IMG/VR virus record: IMGVR_UViG_3300032156_000002
Coordinates: 9,023 to 73,022 of that record
Direction: 5' to 3' (one strand)
DNA length: 64,000 bases
Origin: a virus
Taxonomy: Duplodnaviria > Heunggongvirae > Uroviricota > Caudoviricetes
A program made the translations under genes and the position numbers. The notes beneath the pieces were generated by a model that was not told where the DNA came from, did not search any database, and saw only the letters and a program-made list of their open reading frames with translations. How positions within the stretch are numbered: position 1 is the stretch's first letter; every line of letters starts with the position of its first letter. Shown here one piece after another: positions 12,399 through 59,606 of the stretch.

Positions 12399-12428
12399 TA
12401 TTATACCACGTGCGGAACACTTGTCAAG
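12399..12428 (-). promoter_or_regulatory. Conserved promoter, family copy 4, firing leftward, in tandem with copy 3.
   Basis: Reverse complement reads cgcTTGACAagtgttccgcacgTGGTATAATaag. Confidence 0.5.
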
Positions 12429-12624
12429 CGTCAATTGCCGGGCCGCCCGCCCATACGTCGGCGCTCGCCACAGGCCCGGCGGGGGGTCCACTCGGCGCAC
12501 TTTTGCCCATCTTGCCCTGTGCGCCCCGCTCCGGCCCGGCCCGTGCCCTTCTCTGGCACACTGGGGCGCTCCTGTCCGCCCCCCAAAAGACCCAAGTTTG
12601 ACCCAAGCGCCTCCCTGCGCGCAG

Positions 12625-12660
12625 TGTCGCTACACCTGTCGCTACACCTGTCGCGACAGA
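12625..12660. repeat. Tandem 12 bp direct repeat TGTCGCTACACC, 2.5 copies, a possible regulator-binding site in the divergent control region.
   Basis: tgtcgctacacctgtcgctacacctgtcgcgacag. Confidence 0.5.
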
Positions 12661-12714
12661 CTGGAATGCGCCGGTGCTTATTCAAGCCTCGGGCCTTTCG
12701 CTGGAATATGGCGA

Positions 12715-12746
12715 TTCTTATTCATCGTTCCGCTTGTGGTAGAATA
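12715..12746 (+). promoter_or_regulatory. Rightward promoter of the gmd operon, a degenerate member of the conserved family.
   Basis: ttattcatcgttccgcttgTGGTAGAAT with an extended -10. Its spacer resembles that of the other family copies. Confidence 0.35.
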
Positions 12747-12752
12747 GGGGCC

Positions 12753-15828: not shown

Positions 15829-16584
15829 TTGAAAGTCTCCGTCATACTCACGCTGTACGGGCGCGAGGTTGCCAGCCGCCGGGCGCTCGCGTGCCTGTTG
15901 CGCCAGACGCACCCGCCCGAGCAGATTGTCATTGTGGATGACGAGAATGGGGGTTGGGCTGAGGCCGAGGTCGCCAAGGACCCGCGCCTGCTCTACTTCC
16001 CGTTCAGGCCAAGGGGCGGAGCGTGGCGCGCGTGCAACCTCGCGGTCAATGCCGCATGGCCCAGTGTCACGGGCGATTACATCATTCTCACTTGTGGCGA
16101 TATGCTTGTGCCGACGTTCGCCGTCGAGCGCCATCTTGCCGCGCAGGTGGGCGACTTGCGCACGACGCCCACCGTCTACGGACTGGACGAAAACACAACG
16201 ATGCGGCTGGGCGTGCCCGCGGAGGACGAGCAGGGGCACTGGGCCTTGCCGGATTATCAAGACTGGGTAGACCACGAAAAGTTCAACAACCTGCCGGGCT
16301 TCTGGCAGTGGCCGAGCATATCAACCGCGCCGAACGAGGGTGTACTCAAGGCGGACGGGATTTGGTATGCGTCGGCAAAGGCGTGGCGGCATCACGTGTG
16401 GTTCAGCGGCAACACGCGCGCCGGGTGGGAGTTCTTTGGCCCGCCCCTGATTCCAAGCGACGACCTCGGCGCAGACGAACTGGGCATGCACAAGAACGAA
16501 TGTGGCTATCCCGGCGGACGCCGCCCGCTCACCGACTGCGGGTACGCCATCTATCACCAGTTCCACATACCGGGTGGCCGATGA
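15829..16584 (+). CDS. GT-A fold (GT2-like) glycosyltransferase, paralog 1 of 4, with a TTG start.
   Basis: KVSVILTLYGRE...LLRQTHPPEQIVIVDDENGG resembles the GT2 N-terminal signature. Shares WxGNTREGWE and YHQWH motifs with paralogs 2-4. Confidence 0.55.
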   Translation: MKVSVILTLYGREVASRRALACLLRQTHPPEQIVIVDDENGGWAEAEVAKDPRLLYFPFRPRGGAWRACNLAVNAAWPSVTGDYIILTCGDMLVPTFAVERHLAAQVGDLRTTPTVYGLDENTTMRLGVPAEDEQGHWALPDYQDWVDHEKFNNLPGFWQWPSISTAPNEGVLKADGIWYASAKAWRHHVWFSGNTRAGWEFFGPPLIPSDDLGADELGMHKNECGYPGGRRPLTDCGYAIYHQFHIPGGR

Positions 16585-17366
16585 AAGTCAGCGTCGTCAT
16601 GGCCGCGCGCTACCGTGCGTCCTCGGGGCCGCGTTGCCTCAAAGCCGTGCTTACCCAGTCGCGTCCGCCAGACGAGATTATCATGGTCAACTGCGGCGAG
16701 AACGAATGGGCCGCCCACATCAACAGCCCGCTTGTCGCCGCGGGTGGCCACAAAGTCGCGTTCAAGTACGTGCGCTACCATCCCGCCTCGCCCACGGAAT
16801 ACGCATACACGCGCGGGGTCAACAAGGCGTGGAATCGATGCACTGGCGACTACGTGTTTATCACTCCAACCGATGCACTGGCTCCCTTTCACTGTATCGA
16901 GGCGTCGCTCGCGGTCCAGACAGGCATGCACCGCGTGTGCCATCTCGTGTATGGGCTGGATGAAGGGACCACAAGGCGTCTGGATGACCCGCTATTCCGG
17001 TGGCTGGGTACAGACTTCGAGATTTTCCATACCCTGTCCGGCTTCAGCACGTGGTGGAGGCGCGGCTGGCCGCCGCCCAACAACAGCCCCTTGCAATTGC
17101 AGTGGTGGGGCAACACAGTGTTCAGTTCTAACACGCGCGAGGGTTGGGAGCAATACTGGCCGGGGCAACCCTTCAGCGATGACACGGTTACGGGCAACGA
17201 CGAGATATGCCTGAATATGATGGAGCACGGGGTGGACGTGCCGGACCGTCCTATCAGCGCACCCACGTGGCGCGAGATTACCAAATGTCCAGTTCCGGTC
17301 TATCATCAATGGCACTTGACCCAAGCCGAGGAAGATGCGGCCCACGCTCGCAAGAGGAAAGCCTGA
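16581..17366 (+). CDS. GT-A fold glycosyltransferase, paralog 2.
   Basis: Real gene is in a different frame from the artefactual 447 aa ORF 16023..17366. MKVSVVMAARYRASSGPRCLKAVLTQSRPPDEIIMVNCGENEW. Confidence 0.6.
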   Translation: MKVSVVMAARYRASSGPRCLKAVLTQSRPPDEIIMVNCGENEWAAHINSPLVAAGGHKVAFKYVRYHPASPTEYAYTRGVNKAWNRCTGDYVFITPTDALAPFHCIEASLAVQTGMHRVCHLVYGLDEGTTRRLDDPLFRWLGTDFEIFHTLSGFSTWWRRGWPPPNNSPLQLQWWGNTVFSSNTREGWEQYWPGQPFSDDTVTGNDEICLNMMEHGVDVPDRPISAPTWREITKCPVPVYHQWHLTQAEEDAAHARKRKA

Positions 17367-17369
17367 CCC

Positions 17370-18188
17370 GTGAAGATTAGCGTTGTCATGGCCGCGCGCT
17401 ATCGCTCCGACCATGGCCCGCGCTGTCTCAAGAGCGTGCTGTGGCAGACGCGCCCGCCCCACGAGATTATCATGGTTGACTGCGGCGAGAACGAGTGGGC
17501 GGCGGATATTGGGCCGACAGTGCGAGCCTTGAACGGGTCCGAGGTTGAATTCAAGCGCCATCGTTATGCACCGGCAAGCGTATATGAGTACGCTTACACG
17601 CACGGGGTGAATGCGGCATGGCCGAGGTGCACAGGCGACTACATTTTCATCACGACAACCGACGCGCTCGCGCCTGTGCGTTGTATCGAGGCGTCAATCG
17701 CCATGCAGGTCGGCACGTCGCGCGTGTGTCATCTATGCTATGGGCTAAACCGCGCGACAACAAACCGGCTCGATGACCCCGCCTTCCGCTGGGCAGGAAC
17801 CGACATGCGCCTTTTTCATTCCCTGCCGGGATTCGAGGACTGGTGGAAAGAGGGGCCACGCTGGCCTCATCCGAACAACAGCGTAATCCAACAGGCGTAC
17901 TGGAACCACACCCTGTTCACGAGCAACACGCGCGAGGGCTGGCTCGATTCGCCAGAGTGGCCGGACCTGCCATTCCCTACCCCCGAGTTCATAGCCCGTG
18001 ATACATGGTTTCTGGCCGCCACGGACGAGCGGAGCATGGCCTACCTCGAGGAGAGCGACTCGCTAATCAGGAAGTCCGGCGTTGGGAAGCGTCCGGTCAC
18101 GAAGTGCCCCATTCCGGTCTATCATCAGTGGCATCTTGAGGTCAAAGACGAGAATCGTTTGCACGGCTGGGTCGGCCGGGAGACTTGA
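17370..18188 (+). CDS. GT-A fold glycosyltransferase, paralog 3, with a GTG start.
   Basis: MKISVVMAARYRSDHGPRCLKSVLWQTRPPHEIIMVDCGENEW, about 60% identical to paralog 2. Confidence 0.6.
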   Translation: MKISVVMAARYRSDHGPRCLKSVLWQTRPPHEIIMVDCGENEWAADIGPTVRALNGSEVEFKRHRYAPASVYEYAYTHGVNAAWPRCTGDYIFITTTDALAPVRCIEASIAMQVGTSRVCHLCYGLNRATTNRLDDPAFRWAGTDMRLFHSLPGFEDWWKEGPRWPHPNNSVIQQAYWNHTLFTSNTREGWLDSPEWPDLPFPTPEFIARDTWFLAATDERSMAYLEESDSLIRKSGVGKRPVTKCPIPVYHQWHLEVKDENRLHGWVGRET

Positions 18189-30306: not shown

Positions 30307-30590
30307 GTGATTGAGACCACCGATACTCGCATCCCCGTGAAGCGTTGGGTGACAGGCCTCGACGAGGGAACAGAGCGCCAGATACGCGACATTGCCAATC
30401 TGTCGGTCTCGCGCGCGGTCGCTATCATGCCCGACGCGCACGTTGGGTACGGCATGCCCATCGGCGGCGTGCTGGCGACCTCGACGAAGCGCCGGGCGCG
30501 TACAAGCCGATAGATGAGGTCATGGAGAATCAGCGCGACCTCGTATCCGCGATGGTCAAACTGACGCCCATCGCGAACATAAAGGGATAA
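30307..30590 (+). pseudogene. rtcB: RtcB RNA-ligase remnant. The N-terminal roughly 60 aa and the C-terminal roughly 30 aa are joined out of frame, with about 1 kb of internal sequence deleted.
   Basis: ORF 30307..30513 ends ...VAIMPDAHVGYGMPIGGVLATS, the RtcB metal-site motif. The -1 frame ORF 30345..30590 ends ...LDEAPGAYKPIDEVMENQRDLVSAMVKLTPIANIKG, the RtcB C-terminal signature. Confidence 0.6.
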
Positions 30591-38385: not shown

Positions 38386-38692
38386 GAAGCGCCTCACGGC
38401 GCAATGCAACTGACTTTGGCTCCGGGTCTCGTCAAACAGGCCCGGAGCACATGGGGCCGAGGGCGCGCTTCGGCGCAAGGGACTACTGTCCCTCACGGTA
38501 GGCACTCGACCCCAGTATGACCGGGCTGGGCGCAAACGGCGACGGCTCTCGTAGCATGTTACGAGGTAAAGACGCCGGACGGTCGCTCCGATAAGCGCCC
38601 GGCCCGAGGGGCTAGGTAGGAGTCGCCTAACGAGCGACTCCGGTGGTCGCCTTGCGACCTAAGCCGCGCGAGCGGGGGAGCCTAGCCCCTAC

Positions 38693-38776
38693 GGAGAGAT
38701 AGCCAAGCGGCGAAGGCACCCGTCTGATACGCGGGTGGGCGTAAGCCCCTCGGGCGTTCGAATCGTCCTCTCTCCA
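38693..38776 (+). tRNA. Class-II tRNA-like gene with a long variable arm, a Ser-type acceptor and D arm, and a predicted anticodon GAU.
   Basis: Cloverleaf reads GGAGAGA-TA-GCC-AAGCGGCGAA-GGC-A-CCCGT-CTGATAC-GCGGG-[TGGGCGTAAGCCCCTC]-GGGCG-TTCGAAT-CGTCC-TCTCTCC-A. T-loop TTCGAAT, G18G19, U33, 7/7 acceptor pairs, 84 nt. Confidence 0.5.
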
Positions 38777-38918
38777 CTAGCGGGGCGGCAAATCCAAAGG
38801 CTGGCGTGGGTGATGATTGTCGGGGTGAGGGGAACACTCAATCCCGGCACAAGCGGCGGTGGCCGCCGTCTCGGGGTGAGGCCACAAGAACGCCAACCTT
38901 GCCGCCCCGCTTTCTGAT

Positions 38919-38947
38919 TTGACAAACTATTCCGCACGTGGTATGAT
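38919..38947 (+). promoter_or_regulatory. Conserved promoter, family copy, firing rightward.
   Basis: tTTGACAaactattccgcacgTGGTATGATagg. Confidence 0.5.
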
Positions 38948-38983
38948 AGGGATGCTCACAGACTAGCGAGCGGAGGTGATGCG

Positions 38984-39547
38984 ATGAACGAGGTCCTTGA
39001 GAACACAATCACCCCGTGCGATTCGGCAAGCCGAGTTATTGCCAATTTCTATGTGCAACTCGGGCGCGATGACTGGGAGAATGCGCGCCGCATTGGCATC
39101 GAGCGCAGGGACCGCGACCGGGAGGAGGGTATCGTGGAACTCGCCACTCACCCGGAGATTTGTCTCGACCCCGACGAAACAGCCACCAACTACGGCGCGG
39201 AGATGGCGGCGGCGATGTGGCTCAAGGTGCCATTCGACGAGAACACCGACCCGCGCAAAGCCCTGAAGTTCGACCTGCTGTTTCGTGGCCTGAAGATTGA
39301 CGTGAAGCGTCCGCACGTTCGGGCCAAGGCGCTGTCCATTCCGCCACACACGCGCGACGGCTGGTGCGACATCTACTTGGTTGTCCAGTGCGTCGGCCGC
39401 CGCTACAAGGTAACGGGGTGGATGCGGGCGGCGGAGGCGCGGACAGAGAAATACTGGAACGATGGTTGCGCGAAGCCGTGCTGGCAGGTTCCGTTCGGGG
39501 ACCTGCGCGACCCGATTGACCTGCTCCTCGCGGAGGGACTGCCATGA
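38984..39547 (+). CDS. Hypothetical protein, 187 aa, with a possible PD-(D/E)XK-like motif.
   Basis: FDLLFRGLKIDVKRP fits D...(D/E)xK. Weak. Confidence 0.45.
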   Translation: MNEVLENTITPCDSASRVIANFYVQLGRDDWENARRIGIERRDRDREEGIVELATHPEICLDPDETATNYGAEMAAAMWLKVPFDENTDPRKALKFDLLFRGLKIDVKRPHVRAKALSIPPHTRDGWCDIYLVVQCVGRRYKVTGWMRAAEARTEKYWNDGCAKPCWQVPFGDLRDPIDLLLAEGLP

Positions 39548-46582: not shown

Positions 46583-48172
46583 GTGGTTGTCCGCGACACG
46601 CAGTACAAATTCCGCATCCCGCCCGAGGACTGGATAAGCGACAGGGCGGTTGGAATCGCGCAAGCCGCCGACCCGCCGGAACCGAACGACCCGGCAGTGG
46701 CGGCCAAGATGCGTGCCGCCCGCACGTCGCTCATTGATTTCACCGAGCATACCTACCCGACCTACAAGACCGAGGAGTTTCATCGGCACCTTGCCGGGGC
46801 GTTGCAGAAGGTCGTCATCCCGCGCGCGGACGGCACGCGCGAGATTCCCAAACTGATGATTTTCGCGCCGCCCCAGCACGGCAAGTCGGAACTGGTGAGC
46901 ATCCGCACGCCGCCCTTCTGGCTGGCGCACAACCCGGACTTGCCCGTTGCGCTCATTTCCTACGCGGCGGCCAAAGCCTACGACAACAGCCGACGCGCGC
47001 GCAGTGTCCTTGAGTCCGACGCCTACCGCGACATCTTCCCGTACATCAACGGGGACCCGAACAACCGGCGCGTCACAGATTGGCACATCCTCGGGCGCAA
47101 GGGCTATGCGCTGGCCGCGGGCCTCGGCGGCCCTATCACCGGCCACGGGTTCGGCCTTGGCATCATTGATGACCCGTTCGAAAGTTGGGCGGACGCGCAA
47201 TCGGAGACCATGCGCGAGGGGGCGTGGAGTTGGTACGACGGCACGTTCCGCACCCGCATGTGGGAGAACAGCGCGGTCATCTTTATGATGACGCGCTGGC
47301 ATCTCGACGACCTCGCGGGCCGCCTGCTCGAATCCGAGGGCGAGGTAACAGAGGGCGGGGAGTGGACTGTCCTGCGCTATCCGGCGCTCGCAGAGGAAGG
47401 CGACATTCTCGGGCGCGAGATTGAAGCGCCTTTGGCCCCCAAGCGATTTTCAAAGACGTTCTTGCTCGACCTCAAAGAGAAGGCCAGCCCGTTCGTCTGG
47501 AATGCTGAATACCAACAGCACCCGATTGCCAGCACCGGCGACGTTTTCAATATCGCCCGGCTTCAGATTGTGGACGCACTGCCTGCGGAGGTCGCCGAAG
47601 TTGATGCCCCTGACGAGCCGGGCAAACCTCCGCGCATAGTCGAAGTCCACAAGGGCACACGCTACTGGGACCTCGCGGGTACAGAGGCCAAGACATCCAA
47701 GAGCGACCCGGACTGGACCGTAGGTACAGGTCTGACAACGTTCGAGGCCAAGTCGTTCATTTGGGATGTGGTGCGCATGCGCGCGTCACCCGAGGGCGTG
47801 CGCGCGACCATCGGGTTGACGGCGCAGACGGATGGACGCAGGGTGCGGGTCCGCATCGAGCAAGAAGGTGGGCAGGCGGGCAAGGCGCAGGTGCAGGACT
47901 ACATTGGCTTCCTCCAAGGATTCGACGTTGACGGCGACCTGCCAAGCGGCGACAAGCGGGTACGCGCCATGCCGCTCGCCGCTCAGGTGAACGCTGGCAA
48001 CGTGTTCCTGCTCCGCGGACCATGGAACAAGCAGTTCATGGCCGAACTTGCCGAGTTTGACCACGGCAAGCACGATGACCAAGTGGACAGTGCCGACGGA
48101 GCGTTCAACATCGAGACCGGCCAGCCGAAGTGGCGCAAGATTGGATTCAAGGCAATTTCGGGGCCAAGATAG
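46583..48172 (+). CDS. terL: Terminase large subunit with a GTG start.
   Basis: Walker A in IFAPPQHGKSEL. DDPFE and MMTRWHLDDL ATPase and nuclease-type motifs. 529 aa. Confidence 0.85.
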   Translation: MVVRDTQYKFRIPPEDWISDRAVGIAQAADPPEPNDPAVAAKMRAARTSLIDFTEHTYPTYKTEEFHRHLAGALQKVVIPRADGTREIPKLMIFAPPQHGKSELVSIRTPPFWLAHNPDLPVALISYAAAKAYDNSRRARSVLESDAYRDIFPYINGDPNNRRVTDWHILGRKGYALAAGLGGPITGHGFGLGIIDDPFESWADAQSETMREGAWSWYDGTFRTRMWENSAVIFMMTRWHLDDLAGRLLESEGEVTEGGEWTVLRYPALAEEGDILGREIEAPLAPKRFSKTFLLDLKEKASPFVWNAEYQQHPIASTGDVFNIARLQIVDALPAEVAEVDAPDEPGKPPRIVEVHKGTRYWDLAGTEAKTSKSDPDWTVGTGLTTFEAKSFIWDVVRMRASPEGVRATIGLTAQTDGRRVRVRIEQEGGQAGKAQVQDYIGFLQGFDVDGDLPSGDKRVRAMPLAAQVNAGNVFLLRGPWNKQFMAELAEFDHGKHDDQVDSADGAFNIETGQPKWRKIGFKAISGPR

Positions 48173-48339: not shown

Positions 48340-50766
48340 ATGGCAAAGCCTACTGACCCAACCGATAACGCGCGCGCCCTGCATCTGCCCGCGTACCTCA
48401 ACCGCGTGGTCCCCTACTGGGGGCATCCGGGCTGGCTCATGGCCGAGCGGTGGCGCTCGTTCGTGCGCAATCAGGCGCTCTGCCTCGTCTGTCGCGACAC
48501 ACTCATTCAGAACGTATTATCAACCCCGTGGGATGTCGTGGCGAAGGACCCCGGCGACAAGCAAAGCCCCAGCCTCAAGAAGTCCATTGACCGAATCAAG
48601 AAAGTCCTCGAGGACGCCGAGGGCGACTTCGACACATTCTGCGAACTCGTATTGCAGGACATGCTCGACATTCCGTTCGGCGGCGCGTTCGAGGTGGGCC
48701 GCGAGGACGACTCGCCCGACGGCGATGTGCTGTGGATAGAACACATTGACGGTGCGACACTTCTGCCCACTGGCGACCCGGATGACCCGGTTGAACAACG
48801 GGTCAAGCAGATGCCCACGCGCACCGTCAGATTTCCAAAGTATGCCATCGAGCGGTTGTACGTGACGCCGCGCCCGGAGATTGACCGCAAGGGATGGGGC
48901 ATGGCCCCGCCTGAGAAGGCGTACCTCGCCATTGAGATGCTGTTCCGCGGCGACCGCTATTACGCGAATCTCTTGCTCGACACGCCCGAGGCGGGCATCC
49001 TCGACCTGATTGACATGGAGGAACAGGATGCCGAGGATTGGATTGCCAATGCCAAGGCTCTGTTCACTGGAATCGACGGATTCAAGGTGCCCGTTCTCTA
49101 TCAGCACACAAAACCCGCCGTGTGGATTCCTTTCAACCGCCCTCCCACCGACCTGCTATACGACAAGACAACCATCAAGTACGCGCAAATCCTTGCCGCG
49201 GCTTACGGGATGCGACTCTCTGACATCGGCATGGAGGACATGGGCGGCGAGAAAACTCTTGCGGGCGTTATCCGGGGAGAGCGGCAATCGAGGCGCAGTG
49301 GACAGGCACTTGTCCGAACCAAACTTGAGAACGCCATGGACCGCGTTGTTGGAGACAAACTCAAATTCATCTGGAAGATAGACGATGACGAAGTGACGCT
49401 CGGCAAGGGCCGCGCCGTGATGACATACGTGCAAGGGCTGACGGCCGCCAAGGAAGCGGGTTTCATTGACGCGGCGGAAGGGCGGCGCGAATTGGTCGCG
49501 ACCGGCGTGCTCAAGGTCGAGATTGACCCCGAGGCTTTGCCTCCGCCTCCGGCGATGCCCGGCGCTATTGACCCGGCGACCGGCCTTCCCATCATGCCGC
49601 CGAATCCTCTTGAGGCGGCGGCCAGCGGCACGTCATCCGCGGAGTTGGGCGGGGTCCCCGTGAGTCAGGGCGGGCGAGGCGATAGTGGACTGCTGACACA
49701 GCGCGGTATTGCCGGAACGCGAACCACAGAGCAACTGCAAGCCGAGATGGCGCGGATTATCAAACCGGCGCTCACCCTCGTGGTCGAGCGCGCCGAGGAA
49801 CCGCGATTGCGCAGGCTTGTGCGCGCGGTAACAACGGCCATGGTCCCCAAGGTGGAGCGAACTTTCCTCGACCTCACCGATGAACAAATCGAGGAAACGT
49901 GGCTCCCCGAGATGCTGGCCTTCGACTTCGACGAGCCGAACGAGGTCGAGAACGCCGTGTTGCGAAGTGAGGCCGACGAACTGCGGGTCGAGGTCGAAAA
50001 GCATCTGGCCGATGACCCGTGGTGGAGAACAGCCACCGACGCCCGCAAGGACGAAATCATGGTCGTGATGCGCGCGGCGGCGGAGGCCGGGGCGGTGAAC
50101 GCGGGCTATGCCATCGTGCACGCGCTGTACGAGGCGGGCCAGCGGCGTGACTACGCCATGACGGGATATTCATTCAACCTCAGGAACAGGGCGACCATCG
50201 CCTTGCTTGAGGAGCGCGCGGCTAATCTCGTGCGCTGGGTGGACGAAGCGACCAAGACCTTCATCCGGCGTGTCGTGGTAGCCGGTGTGCGGCAGGGTTT
50301 GAGTTCGCCGGAGATTGCGCAGGCCATTCGTGACGGCGCGACCGCCGAACACATCCTGCAAGTAGATGGCTTCATCGGCGATGTCACGAAACTCATCCGC
50401 GAGGGACTCGTGGAGATGAGCGAGGCGCGGAGCAACTCGATTGTCAATACCGAAATCGCGCACGCCGAAACGACCGGGCGACTCGTGCAGTTCAAGATGT
50501 CCGGCCTGACCACGAAGGCGTGGGTCCACCGCGGCAAACGCGGCGTAACAGCCAAGGGCAACGTGCACCCATGTCCCCTGTGCGCGGGCAACGAGGCCAT
50601 GGGTTTTGTGCCGATTGACTTTGCGTACCCGACCGTGTTCCGCAATGAACCGTCGCCCGTGCCGCCCGCGCATCCGAGCGTGTGCCACTGCGACATCATG
50701 TTCAACGAGGCCGAACTTCTGGCCAAGGTGGGGACGAACGAATACCGTCCGTGGAACGGGCGGTAG
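48340..50766 (+). CDS. Portal protein fused to a C-terminal phage Mu F-like head-morphogenesis domain.
   Basis: Lies after terL. The C-terminal roughly 150 aa, with IVNTEIAHAETTGR...CPLCAGNEAMGFVPIDFAYPT, matches the Mu F/SPP1 gp7 family. The N-terminal roughly 500 aa has portal-like size and position. Confidence 0.7.
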   Translation: MAKPTDPTDNARALHLPAYLNRVVPYWGHPGWLMAERWRSFVRNQALCLVCRDTLIQNVLSTPWDVVAKDPGDKQSPSLKKSIDRIKKVLEDAEGDFDTFCELVLQDMLDIPFGGAFEVGREDDSPDGDVLWIEHIDGATLLPTGDPDDPVEQRVKQMPTRTVRFPKYAIERLYVTPRPEIDRKGWGMAPPEKAYLAIEMLFRGDRYYANLLLDTPEAGILDLIDMEEQDAEDWIANAKALFTGIDGFKVPVLYQHTKPAVWIPFNRPPTDLLYDKTTIKYAQILAAAYGMRLSDIGMEDMGGEKTLAGVIRGERQSRRSGQALVRTKLENAMDRVVGDKLKFIWKIDDDEVTLGKGRAVMTYVQGLTAAKEAGFIDAAEGRRELVATGVLKVEIDPEALPPPPAMPGAIDPATGLPIMPPNPLEAAASGTSSAELGGVPVSQGGRGDSGLLTQRGIAGTRTTEQLQAEMARIIKPALTLVVERAEEPRLRRLVRAVTTAMVPKVERTFLDLTDEQIEETWLPEMLAFDFDEPNEVENAVLRSEADELRVEVEKHLADDPWWRTATDARKDEIMVVMRAAAEAGAVNAGYAIVHALYEAGQRRDYAMTGYSFNLRNRATIALLEERAANLVRWVDEATKTFIRRVVVAGVRQGLSSPEIAQAIRDGATAEHILQVDGFIGDVTKLIREGLVEMSEARSNSIVNTEIAHAETTGRLVQFKMSGLTTKAWVHRGKRGVTAKGNVHPCPLCAGNEAMGFVPIDFAYPTVFRNEPSPVPPAHPSVCHCDIMFNEAELLAKVGTNEYRPWNGR

Positions 50767-51885: not shown

Positions 51886-54800
51886 ATGCACATGCCCTCG
51901 TGGGCGGCGCAGATTATCAACAGGGCGGCGTTAGCGGAAGCCAATCGCGCCGCCTATGCCTGCGCGTTCCTGTCGCGCTACGGCGACGACGATGTTGACG
52001 AGGCGGCGCTTGCGAAGATTGCCGCCTACCAGCGCCGTGTCTCCGGCATTGCCGGTGTTCTCAAGCGCCCGTTCGAGCCGCAGGAGCCGGGCACCTTCCA
52101 CATCTCGCTGGCCTACTTCCCCGACGCGACCGACGAACAGATAGCGGCTCTGAAAGAGAACCTGTCGCTTCCGATTCCGTTCATCGTGACCGCGCGCGGG
52201 ATAAAGGTCTTTCCGCCCAATGGCGAGGGCCTGAGCGCCGTCGTGTTGGACGTGACCGCAACGCCCGCCCTCCTGCGCCTGCAATCGGAGATTATCAATC
52301 GGGCACTCTCGATGGACCTGAAACTGGGCGACTTCGCGGACCCGACAATCTACAGTCCCCATGTCACCCTTGGGTATAGCACCCTTGAGCAGAAGGACGT
52401 ACCGACCAGCATCGAGCCGTTCGAGTTGTGGGTCCGCGGATTTTCAATCACGCGCCACGACTACGACGTACAGTTGGATGTACGACTACCGCTCGTGCGC
52501 GAGCGCGGGCCGCTCGTGACCAGCGGCGGCCCCGGCTCCGGGCACTTCGGCCACGAGGGTAGGCCGGGCGAGGTCGGCGGCAGTCTGCCCGGCGGAAAAC
52601 TCTCTGTAGTTTATGACGAGCACCTAACAACCGAGGCCGAATACCGGAACGGAGTTATTGCCGTCGGGCCGAAGTTTTACGAACTCGACGATGCGGGACG
52701 GGCGCAAGTCATGGCGCACGAGGAAGGTCACGCCCTGAGCGACCAAATGCTGGCCGATGGGCGGGCGTTCGCGCTTCAAGACCAAGGTGCATTCACGGGA
52801 AAATTCGGCGACGAGACGGTTGATGGAATCAACGGACAACTTACTCCGGGCGAGAACGTAGCCGAGGCCTATGCTGTATGGAAACTCGACCCCGATTGGT
52901 TGTTGGAGCACTACCCACTTGCGCATCAGGCTATCGCCGAAGCGATGGCGCGCGGCGGATTGTCCACTGGGGAGCCGGGCGAGGGTGGATTATCCGAGGA
53001 GCACCAGAAGATATGGGAGGAGACCCGCGCCTCCTACGAGACTGCTCTCGCCGAGAAGTACGGAGTCGCCGAGGAACAGCACTGGGACACGGGGACATGG
53101 ATTGGGAGTGACGGCCGACTGCTTGCGCCCAACCAAGACCATCAGGCAATGGCCCTCGACGTATTGGGCTGGGGTAAGGACCTGACGCCCGGAACGAAGG
53201 AATGGGACGATAAGGGCGAGGCCGCGACGAACGAACTCGTGGCCGCCGGGTTGATTCGGTACAACGTGGCCGAGGCGGAGGTGTTCTTCGACATTCCCTC
53301 GAGGGAGGAAACGACGCATAAGCAGAAGGACGCCATGGCGCGCATCTTGACGATGCTTGCCGCCCGCAATGGGCAATGGCCATATCTTGCCATCAATGTC
53401 GGCCCGCCGTTTGAGGAACATGATTACGAGGGAAGCATCATGGGCGTGAGGGAAGGATACAGATTCCTCGGCCTGTCGGAAATGGGCTATGGCGACAAGG
53501 TTATCACACGCGGCGGACCCGGAAGTGGTCACTTTGGCCACGAGGGTAGGCCGGGCGAGGTCGGCGGAAGCGCACCCTCGGGCGGATTGTCAACTGGCGA
53601 GGCGGGCGCGCCCATTCGCCTGACGAAGGCGGCGCTGAATCGAATCCTCACGTGGTCATCCAGCCGCTACAATATGTACCCCAAACACGTCGCGGTGCAA
53701 CTTGCCTACGAGGTCCTGAACGGGGAGCGACCTGACGCCCCGTACCTGCTCCTCGAATCCGGCAACTACACGGAGGCGGCGGGCGGATTGTCATACGGCG
53801 AGTACATGGTCAATGGCCCCGAGGGCTACATTGTCGGCGGCAAGTACAAGGGGAGCGGGAACACTATAACGAACCCGGCCGACTTCGAGGAACTTGGCCC
53901 GCGCACCTACTTCGACATCGGCCTGAGGACGGGCGAGCCGTGGGCAGTGCACGGCGCGCGGCCGGACCTGTACGATTGGCAAGACGAGACCGTAGAACAC
54001 ATCCCGAAGGAAATGACCGACCGGGTGTGGGGCTACCATGCCGAGGCCGCGGGCGACATTTTCCGCGAGGTGGCCTTGCACGGTTCGGACGCGCCAGATG
54101 GCGGCTACCTGACGGAGAAACTGAAACGGGTCGAGAAGTCCTACCGAACCAGCGACCGCGACATCATCTTTTCCAATCCCCTCGCCCCCGATGACGAGGC
54201 GCGCCGGGTCGAGATGCTCGATGCGTGGCGGTCGGTAGACTATACCGAATTGCCCAAGCAACTGCGACTGGCCATTGGCGTGAATATCGGCCTGTTGGAA
54301 CGCGACCCGAGTGCCGTGCAGTCTGCGATTGAGTCGCTTCGCGCAATGCAGGCGAGCGAGTATGTCGAGCGCGGAGGTGAGGGGTCGGGCCACCACGGAC
54401 ACAAGGGCGTCCCCGGACATCGAGGCGGCAGTGCGCCGTCTGGATTATCAACCGGCGGGACCGAAATCGAGATGCACTTGACGGAAGGCGCGCTGTACGA
54501 TTCTGCCGCTCAGAGCGCATGGATTAGAGCAATCAAGGGAGCGGTGGACCGGCTTTCGGAGCGGGGCATCAAATTACCCGGAAGGCTAATTGTCAGCGAC
54601 TCGTTCCTCGACATCGGAAAGTTCGCCGAGATACGGATGCAGGATAAGTCGGTCGTGACGGACGAGATGGCCGAGTCTTGGGCGCGGGGAAACTTCGAGT
54701 ATACGATTGCCGCCATGTGCGTGCAGACCCACGACAAGAACGACGCCATGTTCTTTGTCAATCCGTCGTGGCGCAGACGTTCGCACGGCATCGTCCCCGA

Positions 54801-57705
54801 CGAAAGAAGGGACCGGACAATAGAGGCGATGCTTTCCGATGACGGCCTGAACTTCATGGCCGCTCACGAGTTCGGCCACGCGCTTGACTTCATCGCTGAC
54901 GGCGAGAAGCAAAAATGGGTCGGACCGGTACCGGAAGCCTATAGCGACGCACTGGACACAATCTGTCACTACGACCGCGACAAACTGGATAACGAGTACC
55001 GCGCCGATGTCATTGCCGCGGCGCTGATGGGAAGGCCGCCAGAGCGCGTGACCGCAGTAGGGGGCACCTTCACAGAGGACATGACTAAGGTCGGGCAGAG
55101 GCTTTTGGGCATGGCCGAGACCCGCCTGACAACGCGCACCGCGCCCGGAATGATTGACGAGGAATATGTCACCGGCATGCGTCTCGCGTTTATCCCGGTC
55201 CCGAGCGGCATTATGTACGAGCCAGTTGTGGAGCGTGGCGGACCGGGTAGCGGCCACTTCGGCCACGCCGGTCGGCCCGGCGAGGTGGGCGGGAGTGCGC
55301 CGAGTGAAGGATTGTCAACTGGCGAGCCGGGCAAGCGAATCGTCAAGGTCCTATCGGTTGAGGACACGCGCGAGTACGTCGAGGGCAGGGACGATAAATT
55401 CCGCCCCGTGCCCGGCTCCGGCACAGAGCATACTTGCGACCGATGCGGGCGCTCGCACGAGGTGCACGCAACTGTCGAGTTAGAGGACGGTTCGGAGATG
55501 GTTGTTGGCACCGGGTGCATGAACGCCGAATTCAGCGAGGCTGTGCGCAGGCAGATGCAGAACAAGGAACGGGCGGCAAGGCGTGTACGGATTCTTGAGG
55601 CCGAGATGGCCGCAAAAAAGGTGGAACGAGAAAAGTGGGACGCGGAATACGAAAAGGTAAAGCAACTGCCGATGCCGGAAATAACCGAGAAGGAATTGGA
55701 GACTGGGCGCTATCCCGTCACTGAGTATCGCATGGGCGATGCCGATGTCTGGAATGACCCGCGGTATGGCCTGACCGATGAGCGGCGCAGGCTCTTGTAC
55801 TCGAACTGGTGGCGCAAGCGAATGTTTGAGCGCGGCTTCGAGAGCAACCGACCGGCGTATGATGAGGCGGATTATCTGAAGCGCATTGCGCGCGCACGAG
55901 CCGTCCTAGAAGCCGATGTGGCACCCGAGGTCGTGGAGCGCGGCGGACCCGGCAGTGGCCACTTCAAGCACAAGGGTGTGCCGGGGGAGCGTGGCGGCAG
56001 TGCTCCGAGCGGACGCGCGCCTGCACCGGGGGCCAAGGGTAGCGTCGAGCCTATCCTCTCGCGCCTGTATTCGCCCGAGGCGGGAGTGGCGTTCGTCAAC
56101 TTCAGGGGCAAGTACGCACTGGCCGACGTGGAGCACGGAGCGATTATCAATCGTCAGGGCAAGGTCCTCATCGAACGCACAGACCACAACCCCAAGGAAA
56201 TCTTCTGGCCCTACAGCATGATAGCCCGAATGGAAGGCAAGGTGATGGTCCACAACCACCCGACCGGGGCCGTTCTATCGGATTCGGACGTGATGTTCAT
56301 GCTCAAGAGCAAGTGCTCGGCGATTGTGGCCACGGGGCGGTGGGGTACCTACATCGCAAGCGTGGACCCCGGAGCCGACTCGCTACAGATTATCAATGCC
56401 CTCGGTCGGGCAAACGAGGAAATCTACTCGACCATGAAGGCGTTACCCGACTTCGAGAAAATGTCCGAGGCGGACAAGTGGACAATTCACTTGTCGGAGG
56501 TCTTTGAAACAGTGGAGGACACGACGGATGGAAAGTTCAGATTCGATTGGGAGCCGCCAGCGCCGGAGAATCAACCTGCGGAGCCGCTGGGATACGCTAA
56601 GGCCGAGACGGTCCAGCGCATGGACATCGAGGCTGGCGTGACACTGGACGGCCTCGAGGACGGCGATTACGAGAAGGCAACGATTATCACTGCCGACCAG
56701 ATGTGGGCGCTGATGCAGGGCAAGACCATCACCGCGAATGGCAAGACCATGACCCGCGCGGACGGCCCGTACATGCTCGGAGAGGCGGAGGCCGAGGCCG
56801 TGGAGCGCGGCGGAGCGGGGAGCGGCCATCACAAGCACAAAGGCATCATTGGCCATCGCGGAGGGAGCGCGCCGTCGAATCTTCCGAATGTCGAACCGCC
56901 GCCCGGATACGAGCAAGCACGAGGATTGCGCAAGGCGATTGACATTCTCAATCCGCCGAGAACGAGGAAGTTCGCGAGGGTTATCGGTGCGCTTGAGGCG
57001 ATTGGCCGCGTTCACGGCGTTACCATGTGGCCCATACCGCTCACCACAACGTCATCGAAAACGAAAGGCGGGGCCTACAGGCGCGAGGAATACACCCACA
57101 AGCCACTAGGGATAGCCCTCGTCACCGGGAAGGCCGACCTCGGGGTTGCCGCCGTGCACGAGTTCGGTCACTACATGGATGACTGGGGGCTGGGTCGCGG
57201 ATTCTTCGCAAGCAACAGGCCGGACATCACGAACCTGCCAGAGGAAGCGGGCCTCCACGGACCGTCGGTTTATGAGCAGAACACGGAACTACGCGAGGCG
57301 CTTGATGAGTGGTATCAGGCCGTCATAGATAGCAAGGCGGCGAAGGACTTGGAGCGCGGCGTGTTCAACTCGACGACCATGAAGAAGATTGTCGCCGCGG
57401 ACGGAACGACGACATGGCATGCCGTCCGTGAATCGGGCGTGGGCGGCCAACACAGGTTCTTGGCCAACGTTCGGCAGACGCACGAGTATTTTGCGCGGTC
57501 GTATTCCCAATACATCGCCTTGCGCGGCGGCGACGCCGAGTTGAAGGGCGAAATAGACGGCATCCTGCGCGATGCCAAGAACCCGCCGAGCGTGCCCGGC
57601 TACAAAACCATGGCCTTCACTCAATACTGGGAGTGGGATGACTTCGAGCCAATCGCGAGCGCGTTCGATAAGATTTTCAGGAGTACACAATGGGCGAGCC
57701 AATAG
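51886..57705 (+). CDS. Giant polyvalent protein, 1939 aa. It has an N-terminal 2H (LigT-like) phosphoesterase, three HExxH zincin-like peptidase domains, a Zn-ribbon and a RadC-like JAB/MPN domain. Its modules are separated by 6 copies of the RGGPGSGHFGHxGRPGxVGGS linker.
   Basis: 2H motifs HISLAY at about 52100 and HVTLGY at about 52360. HEEGH at about 52716, HEFGH at about 54865 and HEFGH at about 57157. VHNHPTGAVLSDSD at about 56251. Linker copies at about 52525, 53511, 54370, 55234, 55933 and 56803. Confidence 0.7.
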   Translation: MHMPSWAAQIINRAALAEANRAAYACAFLSRYGDDDVDEAALAKIAAYQRRVSGIAGVLKRPFEPQEPGTFHISLAYFPDATDEQIAALKENLSLPIPFIVTARGIKVFPPNGEGLSAVVLDVTATPALLRLQSEIINRALSMDLKLGDFADPTIYSPHVTLGYSTLEQKDVPTSIEPFELWVRGFSITRHDYDVQLDVRLPLVRERGPLVTSGGPGSGHFGHEGRPGEVGGSLPGGKLSVVYDEHLTTEAEYRNGVIAVGPKFYELDDAGRAQVMAHEEGHALSDQMLADGRAFALQDQGAFTGKFGDETVDGINGQLTPGENVAEAYAVWKLDPDWLLEHYPLAHQAIAEAMARGGLSTGEPGEGGLSEEHQKIWEETRASYETALAEKYGVAEEQHWDTGTWIGSDGRLLAPNQDHQAMALDVLGWGKDLTPGTKEWDDKGEAATNELVAAGLIRYNVAEAEVFFDIPSREETTHKQKDAMARILTMLAARNGQWPYLAINVGPPFEEHDYEGSIMGVREGYRFLGLSEMGYGDKVITRGGPGSGHFGHEGRPGEVGGSAPSGGLSTGEAGAPIRLTKAALNRILTWSSSRYNMYPKHVAVQLAYEVLNGERPDAPYLLLESGNYTEAAGGLSYGEYMVNGPEGYIVGGKYKGSGNTITNPADFEELGPRTYFDIGLRTGEPWAVHGARPDLYDWQDETVEHIPKEMTDRVWGYHAEAAGDIFREVALHGSDAPDGGYLTEKLKRVEKSYRTSDRDIIFSNPLAPDDEARRVEMLDAWRSVDYTELPKQLRLAIGVNIGLLERDPSAVQSAIESLRAMQASEYVERGGEGSGHHGHKGVPGHRGGSAPSGLSTGGTEIEMHLTEGALYDSAAQSAWIRAIKGAVDRLSERGIKLPGRLIVSDSFLDIGKFAEIRMQDKSVVTDEMAESWARGNFEYTIAAMCVQTHDKNDAMFFVNPSWRRRSHGIVPDERRDRTIEAMLSDDGLNFMAAHEFGHALDFIADGEKQKWVGPVPEAYSDALDTICHYDRDKLDNEYRADVIAAALMGRPPERVTAVGGTFTEDMTKVGQRLLGMAETRLTTRTAPGMIDEEYVTGMRLAFIPVPSGIMYEPVVERGGPGSGHFGHAGRPGEVGGSAPSEGLSTGEPGKRIVKVLSVEDTREYVEGRDDKFRPVPGSGTEHTCDRCGRSHEVHATVELEDGSEMVVGTGCMNAEFSEAVRRQMQNKERAARRVRILEAEMAAKKVEREKWDAEYEKVKQLPMPEITEKELETGRYPVTEYRMGDADVWNDPRYGLTDERRRLLYSNWWRKRMFERGFESNRPAYDEADYLKRIARARAVLEADVAPEVVERGGPGSGHFKHKGVPGERGGSAPSGRAPAPGAKGSVEPILSRLYSPEAGVAFVNFRGKYALADVEHGAIINRQGKVLIERTDHNPKEIFWPYSMIARMEGKVMVHNHPTGAVLSDSDVMFMLKSKCSAIVATGRWGTYIASVDPGADSLQIINALGRANEEIYSTMKALPDFEKMSEADKWTIHLSEVFETVEDTTDGKFRFDWEPPAPENQPAEPLGYAKAETVQRMDIEAGVTLDGLEDGDYEKATIITADQMWALMQGKTITANGKTMTRADGPYMLGEAEAEAVERGGAGSGHHKHKGIIGHRGGSAPSNLPNVEPPPGYEQARGLRKAIDILNPPRTRKFARVIGALEAIGRVHGVTMWPIPLTTTSSKTKGGAYRREEYTHKPLGIALVTGKADLGVAAVHEFGHYMDDWGLGRGFFASNRPDITNLPEEAGLHGPSVYEQNTELREALDEWYQAVIDSKAAKDLERGVFNSTTMKKIVAADGTTTWHAVRESGVGGQHRFLANVRQTHEYFARSYSQYIALRGGDAELKGEIDGILRDAKNPPSVPGYKTMAFTQYWEWDDFEPIASAFDKIFRSTQWASQ

Positions 57706-59606
57706 AAATCAACCTGTCTGATGACGGCCTCGCGGATGATGTCGAAGATGTCCGCGCGCGCCTCGCTGTCTCCCGCGGTCTTCACCGGATTGTCATTCGC
57801 GGCGGGCCGGGCAGTGGATTTGCTGGCCACGAAGGCGTGCCCGGACATCTTGGCGGAAGCGCACCCAGCGCGACCGGCCCCAAAGAGGAAGCGCCTGCGG
57901 TTCCGGCGGCTGGCAAGACTGGCGAAGTGGCGCAAGCGGGCGGAAAGAAAAAGGGCCACGTGAAGGGCTACACTGACCTGCACTCGAAATTCGAGCACGG
58001 GCCTGCGCTCGATGACTACTTGGTTGGAGCCGGGGGACCGCTGGGCCTGCGCCTCGCATCGCCGGACAAGGATGCCTTCCTCTCGAAGGATTCGGAGGAC
58101 CTGCGCAGTCGAAACGCGAAGTTGTGGTGGGAGCAGGTCGAGACCTCCTACCGCGAGTGGATTCAGCAACAGTTTGGGGCCAACCCTTGGGAGCAAGCCC
58201 GAGACCCTGAGACGAATCAGGCCAAATCGAGCGACGCATTCGCGACCGCCTACTACGCGAATCTTGAACACCTCGCGCCGTACATGAAGCAGTACACAGA
58301 CATGACCAAGGGCACGGTTGACGGAAGCGCCGCGGAGGCGGCACAGGCCGACTTCGAGGTAGCCCGCAATCTCGGACCCTACATGGTCAATGCGGAGCGT
58401 GTTTTCAATCAGGCCGCCGGTGGTGGTCGTCCCACGCGAGATGCAGTCAAGGCGCTTGTGGATGCCGACGAGTCAATCCCGCGGGCGCTCAAACCCCGCG
58501 CCACAGCGTTTGCCATCCTGAGTCTGATGCGCAAGTATTCGGCCAGTGACCCGGCCTACGCCATGACCATGCGCGGGGGTCCCCTGCGCAGGATTGTCAT
58601 TACTCGCGGCGGAGCCGGTAGCGGCCACTTCGGGCACGAGGGCGTCCCCGGCCACCTTGGCGGGAGCAAGGATAGTCCGGGTAAAGGGAATGACGCTCCC
58701 AAGACGGGAGCAACGCCCGGCCAGAAGGTCACGGCCACGGGCCGCCCGGTGCCGCCGAACGCGGCGTTGATTGACTCGTCTGACAAGCACCTGCTTGAGC
58801 AGGGGTCACAGCGCATCGGCGAAACGGTCGAGTCTTACGCCTACACGACCGAGGAGTGGTTGGACGCGGCAGAGGAAGTCATGGCCGAGCAACCGCCCGA
58901 GGTTGCGAAGAAGATTGCCGACGTGGAGGCGGCACTCAAGACGGGCGAGCCGACATCGAGACTCTACTCTGACGGCAAGGGCAATTACGACGGCGAGCGT
59001 GCCAAGTTGCACGATGGCATTCTGGAAAAAATGTTTGGCCGCGCGACGCCCGTTGCCGAGGGCGAGACGCCGCGCATGACACTAACGGGCGGTTTGCCCG
59101 GCTCTGGCAAGAGCACCGTGCTTTCGGCGAGGCGCGAGCAGGGTTTGGCCGACCTCGAGGGCGCGGTTCACATTGACTCGGACTGGGTGAAGGAACAGTT
59201 GCCCGAGTACGAGGGCTGGAACGCGGCGCTTGTGCACGACGAAGCCTCTGACATCATCTCGCGGGCAATGACGCGCGCGCGCGCAGAGCACTACAGCGTG
59301 GTCTACGACACGACCATGAAAACCACCCAAGAGACGGTGAACTTCGTGAACGCGGCCAAGGAAGCGGGTTACAGCGCGCACGTCATCTATGTGGACGTTC
59401 CGATGAAGATGAGTATGCGCCGCGCCATCAGTCGCTTCATGGACCCGAAATCAGGGCGTTACGTCAGCCCGTATTACATTGCGTCGAACGATAGCAAGAA
59501 CGTAGGAACCTTTGGAACGCTCAAGGCTCTCGTGGACACGTGGGAGCACTGGGACAACGCGACGCCGGGCGGCACGCCGACCCTCATCGCATCGAGCAAG
59601 CCGTAG
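57690..59606 (+). CDS. Polyvalent protein, 638 aa, with 2 linker motifs and a C-terminal P-loop kinase domain of the zeta-toxin or polynucleotide-kinase type.
   Basis: Linkers at about 57797 and 58603. Walker A TGGLPGSGKST at about 59088 followed by a kinase-like fold. Confidence 0.65.
   Translation: MGEPIEINLSDDGLADDVEDVRARLAVSRGLHRIVIRGGPGSGFAGHEGVPGHLGGSAPSATGPKEEAPAVPAAGKTGEVAQAGGKKKGHVKGYTDLHSKFEHGPALDDYLVGAGGPLGLRLASPDKDAFLSKDSEDLRSRNAKLWWEQVETSYREWIQQQFGANPWEQARDPETNQAKSSDAFATAYYANLEHLAPYMKQYTDMTKGTVDGSAAEAAQADFEVARNLGPYMVNAERVFNQAAGGGRPTRDAVKALVDADESIPRALKPRATAFAILSLMRKYSASDPAYAMTMRGGPLRRIVITRGGAGSGHFGHEGVPGHLGGSKDSPGKGNDAPKTGATPGQKVTATGRPVPPNAALIDSSDKHLLEQGSQRIGETVESYAYTTEEWLDAAEEVMAEQPPEVAKKIADVEAALKTGEPTSRLYSDGKGNYDGERAKLHDGILEKMFGRATPVAEGETPRMTLTGGLPGSGKSTVLSARREQGLADLEGAVHIDSDWVKEQLPEYEGWNAALVHDEASDIISRAMTRARAEHYSVVYDTTMKTTQETVNFVNAAKEAGYSAHVIYVDVPMKMSMRRAISRFMDPKSGRYVSPYYIASNDSKNVGTFGTLKALVDTWEHWDNATPGGTPTLIASSKP

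Follow-up and report, generated by a model that had tools for sequence, protein, structure and literature searches.

Introduction

Which amino acid does a transfer RNA (tRNA) carry when its body is of the serine type, its variable arm is long, and its anticodon, GAU, reads the isoleucine codons AUC and AUU? The question is raised by a gene at 38693-38776 of a tailed-phage segment of 64,000 nucleotides (nt) and 62% GC, positions 9,023 to 73,022 of IMG/VR record IMGVR_UViG_3300032156_000002; the whole segment is hereafter called the window. Class I and class II tRNAs are regarded as all but fixed groups, class II comprising Leu, Ser and bacterial Tyr, and a long arm is taken to mark these three identities. 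An earlier sequence-only reading of the window had suggested that the tRNA, if charged with Ser, would decode AUC/AUU as Ser, or else that it is a tRNA-derived attachment or processing element. The answer that we favor, at about even confidence and from comparison of sequences, is a different one: the gene would encode a tRNA that descended from tRNA-Ser, kept an extra arm, reads AUC and AUU and is charged by isoleucyl-tRNA synthetase (IleRS), and it would not be an Ile-to-Ser mistranslator. Such a gene seems best filed among the non-canonical or hybrid tRNAs.

Results

A complete tRNA gene of class-II shape

Across the 64 kb ARAGORN called one tRNA, which lies at 38693-38777 on the plus strand and has the anticodon GAT, and RF00005, the sole Rfam family matched within the window, scored 52.6 bits at 38693-38776 against a gathering score of 29. 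The gene is 84 nt long and has a 7/5 configuration (7-bp acceptor stem, 5-bp T stem). Its acceptor stem, GGAGAGA/TCTCTCC, is perfect and is followed by UA after the 5' strand; an eighth acceptor pair would set U8 opposite C and is not formed. The D arm is GCC-AAGCGGCGAA-GGC, followed by A, and the anticodon arm is CCCGT-CTGATAC-GCGGG, with GAU at 38726-38728 and A37. The variable region, TGGGCGTAAGCCCCTC, is 16 nt long and folds as U-GGGC-GUAA-GCCC-CUC; the T arm is GGGCG-TTCGAAT-CGTCC. The discriminator, A73, lies at 38776 and is followed by the trailer CTA, so that no CCA is encoded. The universal tRNA core is intact (U8, A14, G18G19, U33, the TTCGAAT T loop and G53-C61). The cloverleaf, the GAU anticodon, the A discriminator and the 16-nt arm of the sequence-only reading are thus confirmed, and the locus is very probably a functional tRNA gene.

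No DNA match to the tRNA or to its 4-kb neighborhood was found among GenBank phages. Public data contain few relatives of this phage. Related loci were found by exact-protein look-ups, with the 187-aa protein encoded downstream as the handle: L001 and L002, which are the same phage as the window apart from one local difference; L003 and L004, in which the 187-aa protein is 73-77% identical; and L008, whose terminase is 80% identical to that of the window. A search of IMG/VR with the two flanking proteins found no relatives, a profile search with the 187-aa protein returned only one further, distant short contig, and terminase relatives at 55% identity (L140, L141) had no tRNA within 10 kb.

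The tRNA has an orthologue at L004:203-287 (56.6 bits in Rfam), which shares its acceptor stem, GAU and A73 and whose variable arm has 15 nt. Between L004 and the window the tRNA is 77% identical, as compared with 77% for the neighboring 187-aa protein and 78% for its gene at the DNA level. Two T-stem pairs differ on both sides, and the U-G of the window at 31-39 is replaced in L004 by a Watson-Crick G-C. The conserved loop is therefore the one of 7 nt with GAU, and an alternative 9-nt loop containing UGA, offered earlier for the same sequence, is disfavored by this change. Over the four tRNAs of the locus, 98.8% of cells pair and 7 pairs have changed on both sides; 0 of 500 shuffles came up to this level, and in slid controls 42-54% of cells pair. 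The anticodon loop is better kept than the stems: six of its seven bases are identical in the window and L004 (CUGAUAC vs. CUGAUAA), while the stems have changed.

The slot that the tRNA occupies is itself variable. L004 has a class-I tRNA(CAU) directly upstream of its GAU gene, L003 has only a tRNA(CAU), with discriminator U73, and L008 has at 6133-6202 a CAU-like “tRNA” of 70 nt that falls below the Rfam threshold; its D arm is truncated, base 33 is C and the 1-72 pair is mismatched. All of these slot occupants read the AUN codon box. L008 also has a second non-coding stretch of about 560 nt (8484-9042) with a marginal tRNA-Gly(GCC) of 32.6 bits in which CCA is encoded. The anticodon and T arms shared by the two neighboring tRNAs of L004 suggested an origin of the GAU gene by insertion into the tRNA(CAU); we rejected this origin, since descent from tRNA-Ser with local gene conversion in L004 is likelier given the 80% full-length identity to a real tRNA-Ser.

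A serine-type body with isoleucine marks

A 26-nt 5' pattern common to both orthologues, GGAGAGATRGCCRAGCGGNNGAARGC, was scanned over GTDB genomes and gave at least 121 matches, spread over many phyla. All 113 of the listed matches that ARAGORN called are tRNA-Ser (GGA 45, GCU 44, UGA 18, CGA 6), in agreement with the earlier description of the acceptor as Ser-type. Over their full length, the window gene and that of L004 are up to 78% and up to 80% identical to real tRNA-Ser, and the best E. coli match is also a tRNA-Ser; judged by these likenesses, the Ser-type body is real.

Other features depart from tRNA-Ser. Among the matches listed, the discriminator of comparable tRNA-Ser is G in 110 of 111, and it is A in both the window and L004; the sole A73 among the 111 belongs to a tRNA-Ser(GCU) of Methylobacter psychrophilus (L012). 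The 93 distinct tRNA-Ser among those matches have arms of 16-22 nt with 5-8 bp, and 86 of the 93 leave only one base unpaired on the 3' side; the arm has 4 bp followed by CUC (three unpaired bases) in the window, and 3 bp followed by 2-3 unpaired bases in L004. Set against the four features of a tRNA-Ser, then, the Ser acceptor and D arm are there, and the other three (G73, the arm geometry and an anticodon for UCN/AGY) are lacking.

The strong determinants of tRNA-Ile(GAU), namely G34 A35 U36, A37 (the site of N6-threonylcarbamoyladenosine, t6A) and A73, are present in the window and in L004. Of the minor IleRS elements, which are defined for E. coli only, C29-G41 is present and two others are replaced (G4-C69 for C4-G69, C12-G23 for U12-A23). 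The class-I body with a 4-5-nt variable loop is not found, the variable arm having 16 nt. According to PMC9976931, IleRS relies mainly on the discriminator and anticodon, with contributions from t6A37 and C29-G41; seryl-tRNA synthetase (SerRS) uses the size and orientation of the arm together with G73; and the G73 of tRNA-Ser blocks the leucyl and tyrosyl enzymes (LeuRS and TyrRS).

The phage's own proteins speak to the proposal that Ile codons are read as Ser. In 40 confident phage genes the Ile codons are ATC 280, ATT 240 and ATA 73. When the terminase was compared with 20 homologues, 71% of the homologue residues at the window's Ile positions were I, V or L, with Ser outside the top six, and the window's Ser positions behaved as Ser. 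The comparison indicates that Ile codons are not reassigned in this phage, and leaves low-level mistranslation possible. Taken together, A73, the arm geometry and the terminase comparison make charging with Ser, with AUC/AUU read as Ser, the less likely outcome.

Long-armed isoacceptors in other phages

A pattern restricted to tRNAs of class-II length with a CTGATA loop (AGCGG, 12-15 nt, CTGATA, 22-32 nt, GTTCRAMTC) matched 23 IMG/VR contigs, of which 18 were called by ARAGORN as tRNAs of 83-92 nt with anticodon GAU. Ten distinct sequences have A73 and an arm of 3-5 bp followed by 3-4 unpaired bases, which is the geometry of the window tRNA and also that of a tRNA-Tyr within the same arrays. 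These long tRNA(GAU) genes lie mostly inside big tRNA arrays of AT-rich contigs (45-476 kb), and the arrays usually carry a normal tRNA-Ile(GAU) of 73-76 nt as well. Four were submitted to Rfam: those of L142, L158 and L160 passed at 51-54 bits, and the L144 gene was not listed. Their D arms are Tyr-like (CCC..GGG), as opposed to Ser-like in the window, so that the window tRNA matches this set in architecture rather than by evident common descent. Two GC-rich genes, L148 and L149/L155, are exceptions in being Ser-like; their arm has 6 bp and their discriminator is U or G, and the acceptor stem of L149/L155 has two mismatched pairs and looks damaged. No DNA match to two of the long tRNA(GAU) sequences was found among GenBank phages.

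In the arrays of L142-L164, anticodons for Ile, Asn, His, Thr, Met, Cys, Lys and Glu occur in both a long (84-92 nt) and a short (72-76 nt) tRNA (for example L142:1251-1336, L144:3361-3451, L160:948-1033 and L160:1838-1928), and several long twins of other anticodons exceed the Rfam threshold. The discriminators of long and short twins agree for Ile (A/A), Cys (U/U), His (C/C), Thr (U/U), Lys (A/A) and Glu (A/A), and are mixed for Asn. Since twins share a discriminator, a phage tRNA can apparently gain an extra arm with no change of amino-acid identity, and the twins argue that the arm can be added to phage tRNAs in this way. Since tRNA-Leu of 73-74 nt and tRNA-Tyr of 76 nt, both of class-I size, occur in the same arrays, tRNAs seem to change class in both directions. 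On the minus strand of L142, 3426-3508 scored 47.3 against the tRNA-Sec threshold of 47 in Rfam and may be allo-tRNA-like or selenocysteine (Sec)-like.

Full-text literature searches found no description of long-armed phage isoacceptors, the nearest being the allo-tRNAs (PMC5389517) and the nev-tRNAs of nematodes (PMC3333845). Phage isoacceptors with an extra Tyr-type arm, standing beside or instead of ordinary ones, thus seem to be a wider phage habit that is apparently undescribed.

RNA modules on both sides of the tRNA

The tRNA closes the operon that lies upstream of it and has a conserved RNA module on either side (Table 1); its region belongs to the 3' untranslated tail of the 177-aa gene, and a promoter scan found no promoter-like site between that gene and the tRNA. 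Folding of 38386-38692 gave -168 kcal/mol (z = -6.2), a value that none of 100 shuffles equaled, and folding of 38777-38983 gave z = -3.15, which bears out the hairpin-rich structured flanks reported from the sequence; the folded modules are local ones. The non-coding character claimed for the region also held: no open reading frame (ORF) with the phage's signature of GC at third codon positions (GC3) was found over 38386-38983, and indels between relatives are not multiples of three. As to the proposal of one or more structured non-coding RNAs co-transcribed with the tRNA, the structured flanks are there and conserved, while co-transcription is something that we only infer. Stable RNAs C and D of the T4 tRNA cluster are structured phage RNAs of this kind, co-transcribed with tRNAs.

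Table 1. Features of the tRNA locus, in window coordinates.
Feature	Position	Strand	Basis and remarks
Upstream protein gene, 177 aa	37852-38385	+	GC3-rich ORF; Pfam/PHROG match not found
Two simple GC hairpins, strain-variable	38386-38450 (38389-38402, 38417-38450)	+	Fold
Two multi-branch modules	38452-38605 (~38452-38514, ~38522-38605)	+	Fold; identical in L001/L002
Element 5, four-way junction	38607-38690	+	11-bp closing helix; hairpin loops UAAC, CUU, GCGA; ends 2 nt before tRNA
tRNA gene, class-II shape, GAU	38693-38776	+	ARAGORN; Rfam 52.6 bits; orthologue L004:203-287
Stalk	38779-38911	+	Fold; helix P1 38779/38780-38791 with 38899-38910/38911; starts 3 nt after A73
T-rich tract TTTCTGATTT and promoter	38911-38947	+	Promoter scan, 11/12 matches
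Downstream gene, 187 aa, phrog_18407	38984-39547	+	PHROG; function unassigned

The four-way junction, element 5, is 93% identical to its counterparts in L003 and L004, as against 66-78% for the neighboring genes and 77% for the tRNA. Its changes consist of loop substitutions, a 3-nt loop insertion and one stem U-A that becomes U-G, with an A-U to U-A swap at the base of helix P1 in L003. L008 lacks the element. Each phage that has it gave a single copy with a covariance model (R1), and a DNA pattern for it found no relatives.

On the 3' side, P1 of the stalk pairs GCGGGGCGGCAA (38780-38791) with TTGCCGCCCCGC (38899-38910) over 12-13 bp and is invariant in the window, L003, L004 and L008; the long-range pairing first seen in the window is therefore real. 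A 5'-side internal loop, AUCCAA, leads to a second helix, GGCUGGCG/CGCCAACC, which is kept with a different sequence in L008 and in which a C-A mismatch becomes C-G in L004. The distal part, with three hairpins, is variable and has interior indels of 1-28 nt. An apparent covariation in one hairpin of the stalk (GUGAG/CUCAC in the window vs. GGUGA/UCACC in L003) was discarded, since a one-base shift of an unchanged sequence accounts for it; what remains, in a manual alignment, is one G-C that is C-G in L008. A DNA pattern for the stalk found no relatives, its ten matches all being due to chance and lacking the 3' partner, and a JGI metagenome scan for it gave two chance matches inside genes. 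Permissive Rfam scans (E up to 10) of the region and of its relatives returned only the tRNA. The two modules that flank the tRNA are thus conserved and outside known Rfam families.

The stalk helix, 12 bp and GC-rich, is followed by UUUCUGAUUU in the window, UUUUCAUUU in L003 and UUGCGUU in L004, and by no U run in L008; a terminator scan called none at the stalk, whose “loop” is about 107 nt. The T-rich tract (38911-38920) overlaps the -35 box of a strong, sigma-70-like promoter at 38919-38947 (TTGACA, 17-nt spacer, TATGAT with a TG extension) that would serve the next operon and is conserved in L003, L004 and L008. The spacer motif TTCCGCAYGYGGTA, also present in those three, recurs 11 times in the window as against 1.8 expected, and its partly palindromic core may be a regulator binding site. 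Sites of this promoter family, with TTCCGCAYGYGGTA between TTGACA and TATNAT, lie at 4980, 6747, 12238 and 12404 on the minus strand and at 38930, 39841 and 12728 on the plus strand, among others.

Farther upstream, the multi-branch modules are not recognizably conserved in L003, and L004 ends here; only the 3' motif CCGGA..GCGCCCGGC recurs. In their place L003 has an RNA-like stretch of 168 nt (1567-1736) with a tRNA-type acceptor stem (GGAGAGG/CCUCUCC, then A). It has a hairpin resembling a D arm, its T arm GCCAG-UUCGAAU-CUGGC is perfect, and about 110 nt of other structure fill the position expected for the anticodon arm; neither ARAGORN nor Rfam calls it a tRNA. In L001, and identically in L002, a free-standing GIY-YIG/NUMOD3 homing endonuclease gene (1755-2435, Pfam) replaces window 38386-38448, and the last ~230 nt of the upstream gene are about 76% identical, all else being 100%. 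The presence or absence of this gene looks like a homing-endonuclease polymorphism, which we take to be akin to that of SegB in the T4 tRNA cluster.

Discussion

How a serine tRNA could come to decode isoleucine

The history that we propose would begin with a tRNA-Ser that was converted in three ways: it took the anticodon GAU with A37, its G73 became A73, and its arm was cut to a stem of 3-4 bp with about three unpaired bases. Through these conversions it would have gained strong Ile marks (the anticodon and A73, plus C29-G41) and lost two hallmarks of tRNA-Ser, so that the host IleRS most likely charges it. Read-through from the upstream operon would yield a precursor, in which a ribonuclease P (RNase P) cut at G1 would also set the 3' end of element 5, freeing it as a cloverleaf-like RNA with a 2-3-nt tail. 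The 3' trailer would then be trimmed and CCA added, the stalk beginning 3 nt past A73 being a likely 3'-processing or termination signal, and the charged tRNA would supplement the decoding of AUC/AUU. As for the extra arm, our guess is that it marks or shields the phage tRNA in a conflict over tRNA cleavage, a speculation suggested by the RNA-repair domains that the phage carries.

Several points weigh against charging by IleRS. Both the aminoacylation and the expression of the tRNA are inferred from sequence alone. IleRS is not known to accept a long variable arm, and A73 with a long arm is also the signature of Leu and Tyr. The gene lacks C4-G69 and U12-A23, two minor IleRS elements of E. 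coli, and keeps the Ser-type pairs G1-C72, G2-C71, A3-U70 and C11-G24, which are invariant between both orthologues. The Ser-like version is known from two orthologues only, and a role in Ile decoding by itself gives no reason to keep the arm. According to PMC9976931, E. coli SerRS reads mainly tertiary shape and G73 is only a moderate determinant, so some serylation is possible.

A mistranslating tRNA, charged by SerRS and inserting serine at AUC/AUU, would agree with that last point, with the 5' pattern found in 113 of 113 called tRNA-Ser among the listed matches, with the invariant Ser-type pairs, and with a SerRS that ignores the anticodon (PMC9976931); it would have natural precedents in the allo-tRNAs (PMC5389517) and in tRNA-ProX (PMC11415595), and two Ser-like GAU genes with 6-bp arms exist in IMG/VR (L148, L149/L155). 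We nevertheless think it unlikely: the rarity of A73 (1 of 111 comparable tRNA-Ser among the matches listed) and an arm geometry outside the tRNA-Ser range both stand against it, and these departures are kept in the orthologue and are common to the phage tRNA(GAU) set that is not Ser-like. Moreover, Ile makes up 4.5% of the phage codons, at hydrophobic conserved positions, and the phage's own proteins would suffer. Charging with Leu, a conservative reading of AUC/AUU, or with Tyr seems less probable still. It could draw on the presence of A73, on an arm (1 + 3-4 bp + 3 unpaired) equal to that of a phage tRNA-Tyr in L160, on a nematode nev-tRNA(UAU) that is leucylated by LeuRS (PMC3333845), and on the change from A73 to G73 that turns Leu identity into Ser in several contexts (PMC9976931). 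Yet the Levitt pair is G15-C48, where E. coli LeuRS needs A15-U48, and position 35 is A, where U35 is the key TyrRS element (PMC9976931); and the long-armed tRNAs of the arrays keep the discriminators of their cognate short twins, so that the arm would be an add-on, not an identity switch.

The remaining explanations take the gene out of translation. It might serve as processing punctuation between operons, as a decoy for a host nuclease directed at tRNAs or as the scaffold of a larger non-coding RNA, and this would suit its position between two operons within about 470 nt of conserved or structured RNA, the irregular tRNAs that fill its slot in relatives (the sub-threshold CAU-like one of L008, the CAU one with U73 of L003), the RNA-repair domains of the phage (RlaP, an RtcB-like fragment, a LigT-like domain and a polynucleotide kinase (PNK)-like kinase), and the fact that GOLLD RNAs can hold tRNAs in their linker (PMC12286853). 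We consider a role of this kind improbable, in view of an anticodon loop that is more conserved than the stems, intact universal positions and a slot that always reads the AUN box, which points to decoding; the Rfam scan, too, found no GOLLD or ROOL match. Descent into a pseudogene, or an attachment-site remnant of tRNA-Ser, is largely refuted, and we give it very little weight. Temperate phages do carry tRNA fragments at attP, and L149/L155 looks like a damaged Ser-like gene of that kind, but the window tRNA is full length, with a perfect acceptor stem, and differs from its orthologue by compensatory changes, and a Pfam scan of about 100 ORFs turned up neither an integrase nor a recombinase domain; the attachment element of the sequence-only reading is disfavored on the same grounds.

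To return to the proposed Ser-derived tRNA-Ile, it may be one instance of something broader. Phages could systematically add a Tyr-type arm to their own isoacceptors (seen for Ile, Asn, His, Thr, Cys, Lys, Glu and Met), with the window tRNA reaching the same end from a Ser scaffold; the arm could be a self-mark against host tRNA-directed nucleases or a handle for phage RNA-repair or processing enzymes, and the flanking modules could be processing RNAs of a new kind that free the tRNA, perhaps by cleaving themselves. We offer this larger scheme tentatively and regard it, as a whole, as doubtful.

Relation to known systems

The history proposed here, in which a Ser gene takes over Ile decoding, is the same as that of alloacceptor recruitment or “remolding,” anticodon-shift events that occur in bacteria, mitochondria and eukaryotes. 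The cases that we know of stay within one structural class, and we know of no class-II body described for a class-I amino acid in bacteria or phages. The allo-tRNAs (Mukai et al., PMC5389517) share the long arm, Ser-like features, anticodons of other amino acids including Ile (UAU), and runs of irregular tRNAs; they differ in their 8/4 or 9/3 configuration, Sec-like D arm and mostly G73 or U73, as opposed to 7/5, a Ser D arm, A73 and GAU here, and with a 7/5 configuration the window gene is not an allo-tRNA. The nev-tRNAs (Hamashima et al., PMC3333845) are likewise class-II, with an Ile (UAU) or Gly anticodon, A73 and conservation within a lineage, but they are eukaryotic, derived from tRNA-Leu and charged with Leu, whereas the present gene is phage-borne, would derive from tRNA-Ser and has G15-C48. 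The tRNA-ProX of Streptomyces (PMC11415595) also joins a natural tRNA body of one isotype to the anticodon of another; it is class I, has its own synthetase, ProRSx, and is shown to mistranslate, whereas no synthetase gene is present in the 64 kb.

For the RNA modules, the closest comparison is with the theta ribozymes, hepatitis delta virus (HDV)-like elements whose cleavage site lies within about 5 nt of the 3' end of CCA-less phage tRNAs, in phages with nucleotidyltransferase and RNA-repair genes (PMC10879173). The stalk agrees in its placement at the 3' end and in the missing CCA, and differs in having a single continuous helix of 12-13 bp over about 133 nt in place of a nested double pseudoknot, with no match to the HDV model. 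An HDV-like fold for the stalk was rejected by this topology, ribozyme families being unmatched at E up to 10, and a self-cleaving stalk would be possible but unsupported. GOLLD and ROOL (PMC12286853) are also structured phage non-coding RNAs beside or around tRNA genes, but no Rfam match to them was found here, and the present modules are short (84 and 133 nt) and belong to a narrow phage lineage.

A conserved class-II tRNA with Ile marks, together with the long and short twins, suggests that the arm is separable from amino-acid identity. If charging with Ile is true, the gene would represent a natural Ser-to-Ile alloacceptor conversion with the scaffold still intact and would give a new handle on why phages carry tRNAs, evasion of tRNA-cleaving defenses being a candidate, as well as possible orthogonal scaffolds for engineering. 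Charging with Ser or Leu would instead make it a device for mistranslation carried by a phage. The modules on either side of the tRNA are conserved RNA motifs that are new, and one of the two surpasses the tRNA in conservation.

Other genes of the phage

Genes lie on the minus strand to about 12 kb and on the plus strand thereafter, with the large terminase at 46583-48172 and the portal at 48340-50766. The RNA-repair domains comprise an RlaP nucleotidyltransferase (1870-2700, minus strand); a 47-residue match to the RtcB C terminus in the ORF at 30345-30590 (plus strand), with no RtcB similarity found in the ORFs next to it; a LigT/2H phosphoesterase domain at the N terminus of a 1939-aa protein whose gene (51886-57705, plus strand) comes directly after those for portal and head; and, in the 638-aa protein encoded next (57690-59606, plus strand), a P-loop kinase domain of the Zeta-toxin/PNK-like type. 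A second GIY-YIG/NUMOD3 homing endonuclease gene (2667-3344, minus strand) adjoins the RlaP gene. At 12219-15035 (plus strand) a GDP-mannose 4,6-dehydratase/NAD-epimerase is split around a LAGLIDADG domain (residues ~564-621) in what looks like an intein, and several family 2 glycosyltransferases follow at 15829-18188. Finally, a long ORF in the frame of 62403 (~62560-64000, plus strand) runs off the right end of the window; it carries two copies of a repeated motif, GGPGSGHFGHAGRPGEVGGS, about 250 residues apart, and an HExxH motif (HELAH) near the window end, and is probably a large virion or ejected polyvalent protein.

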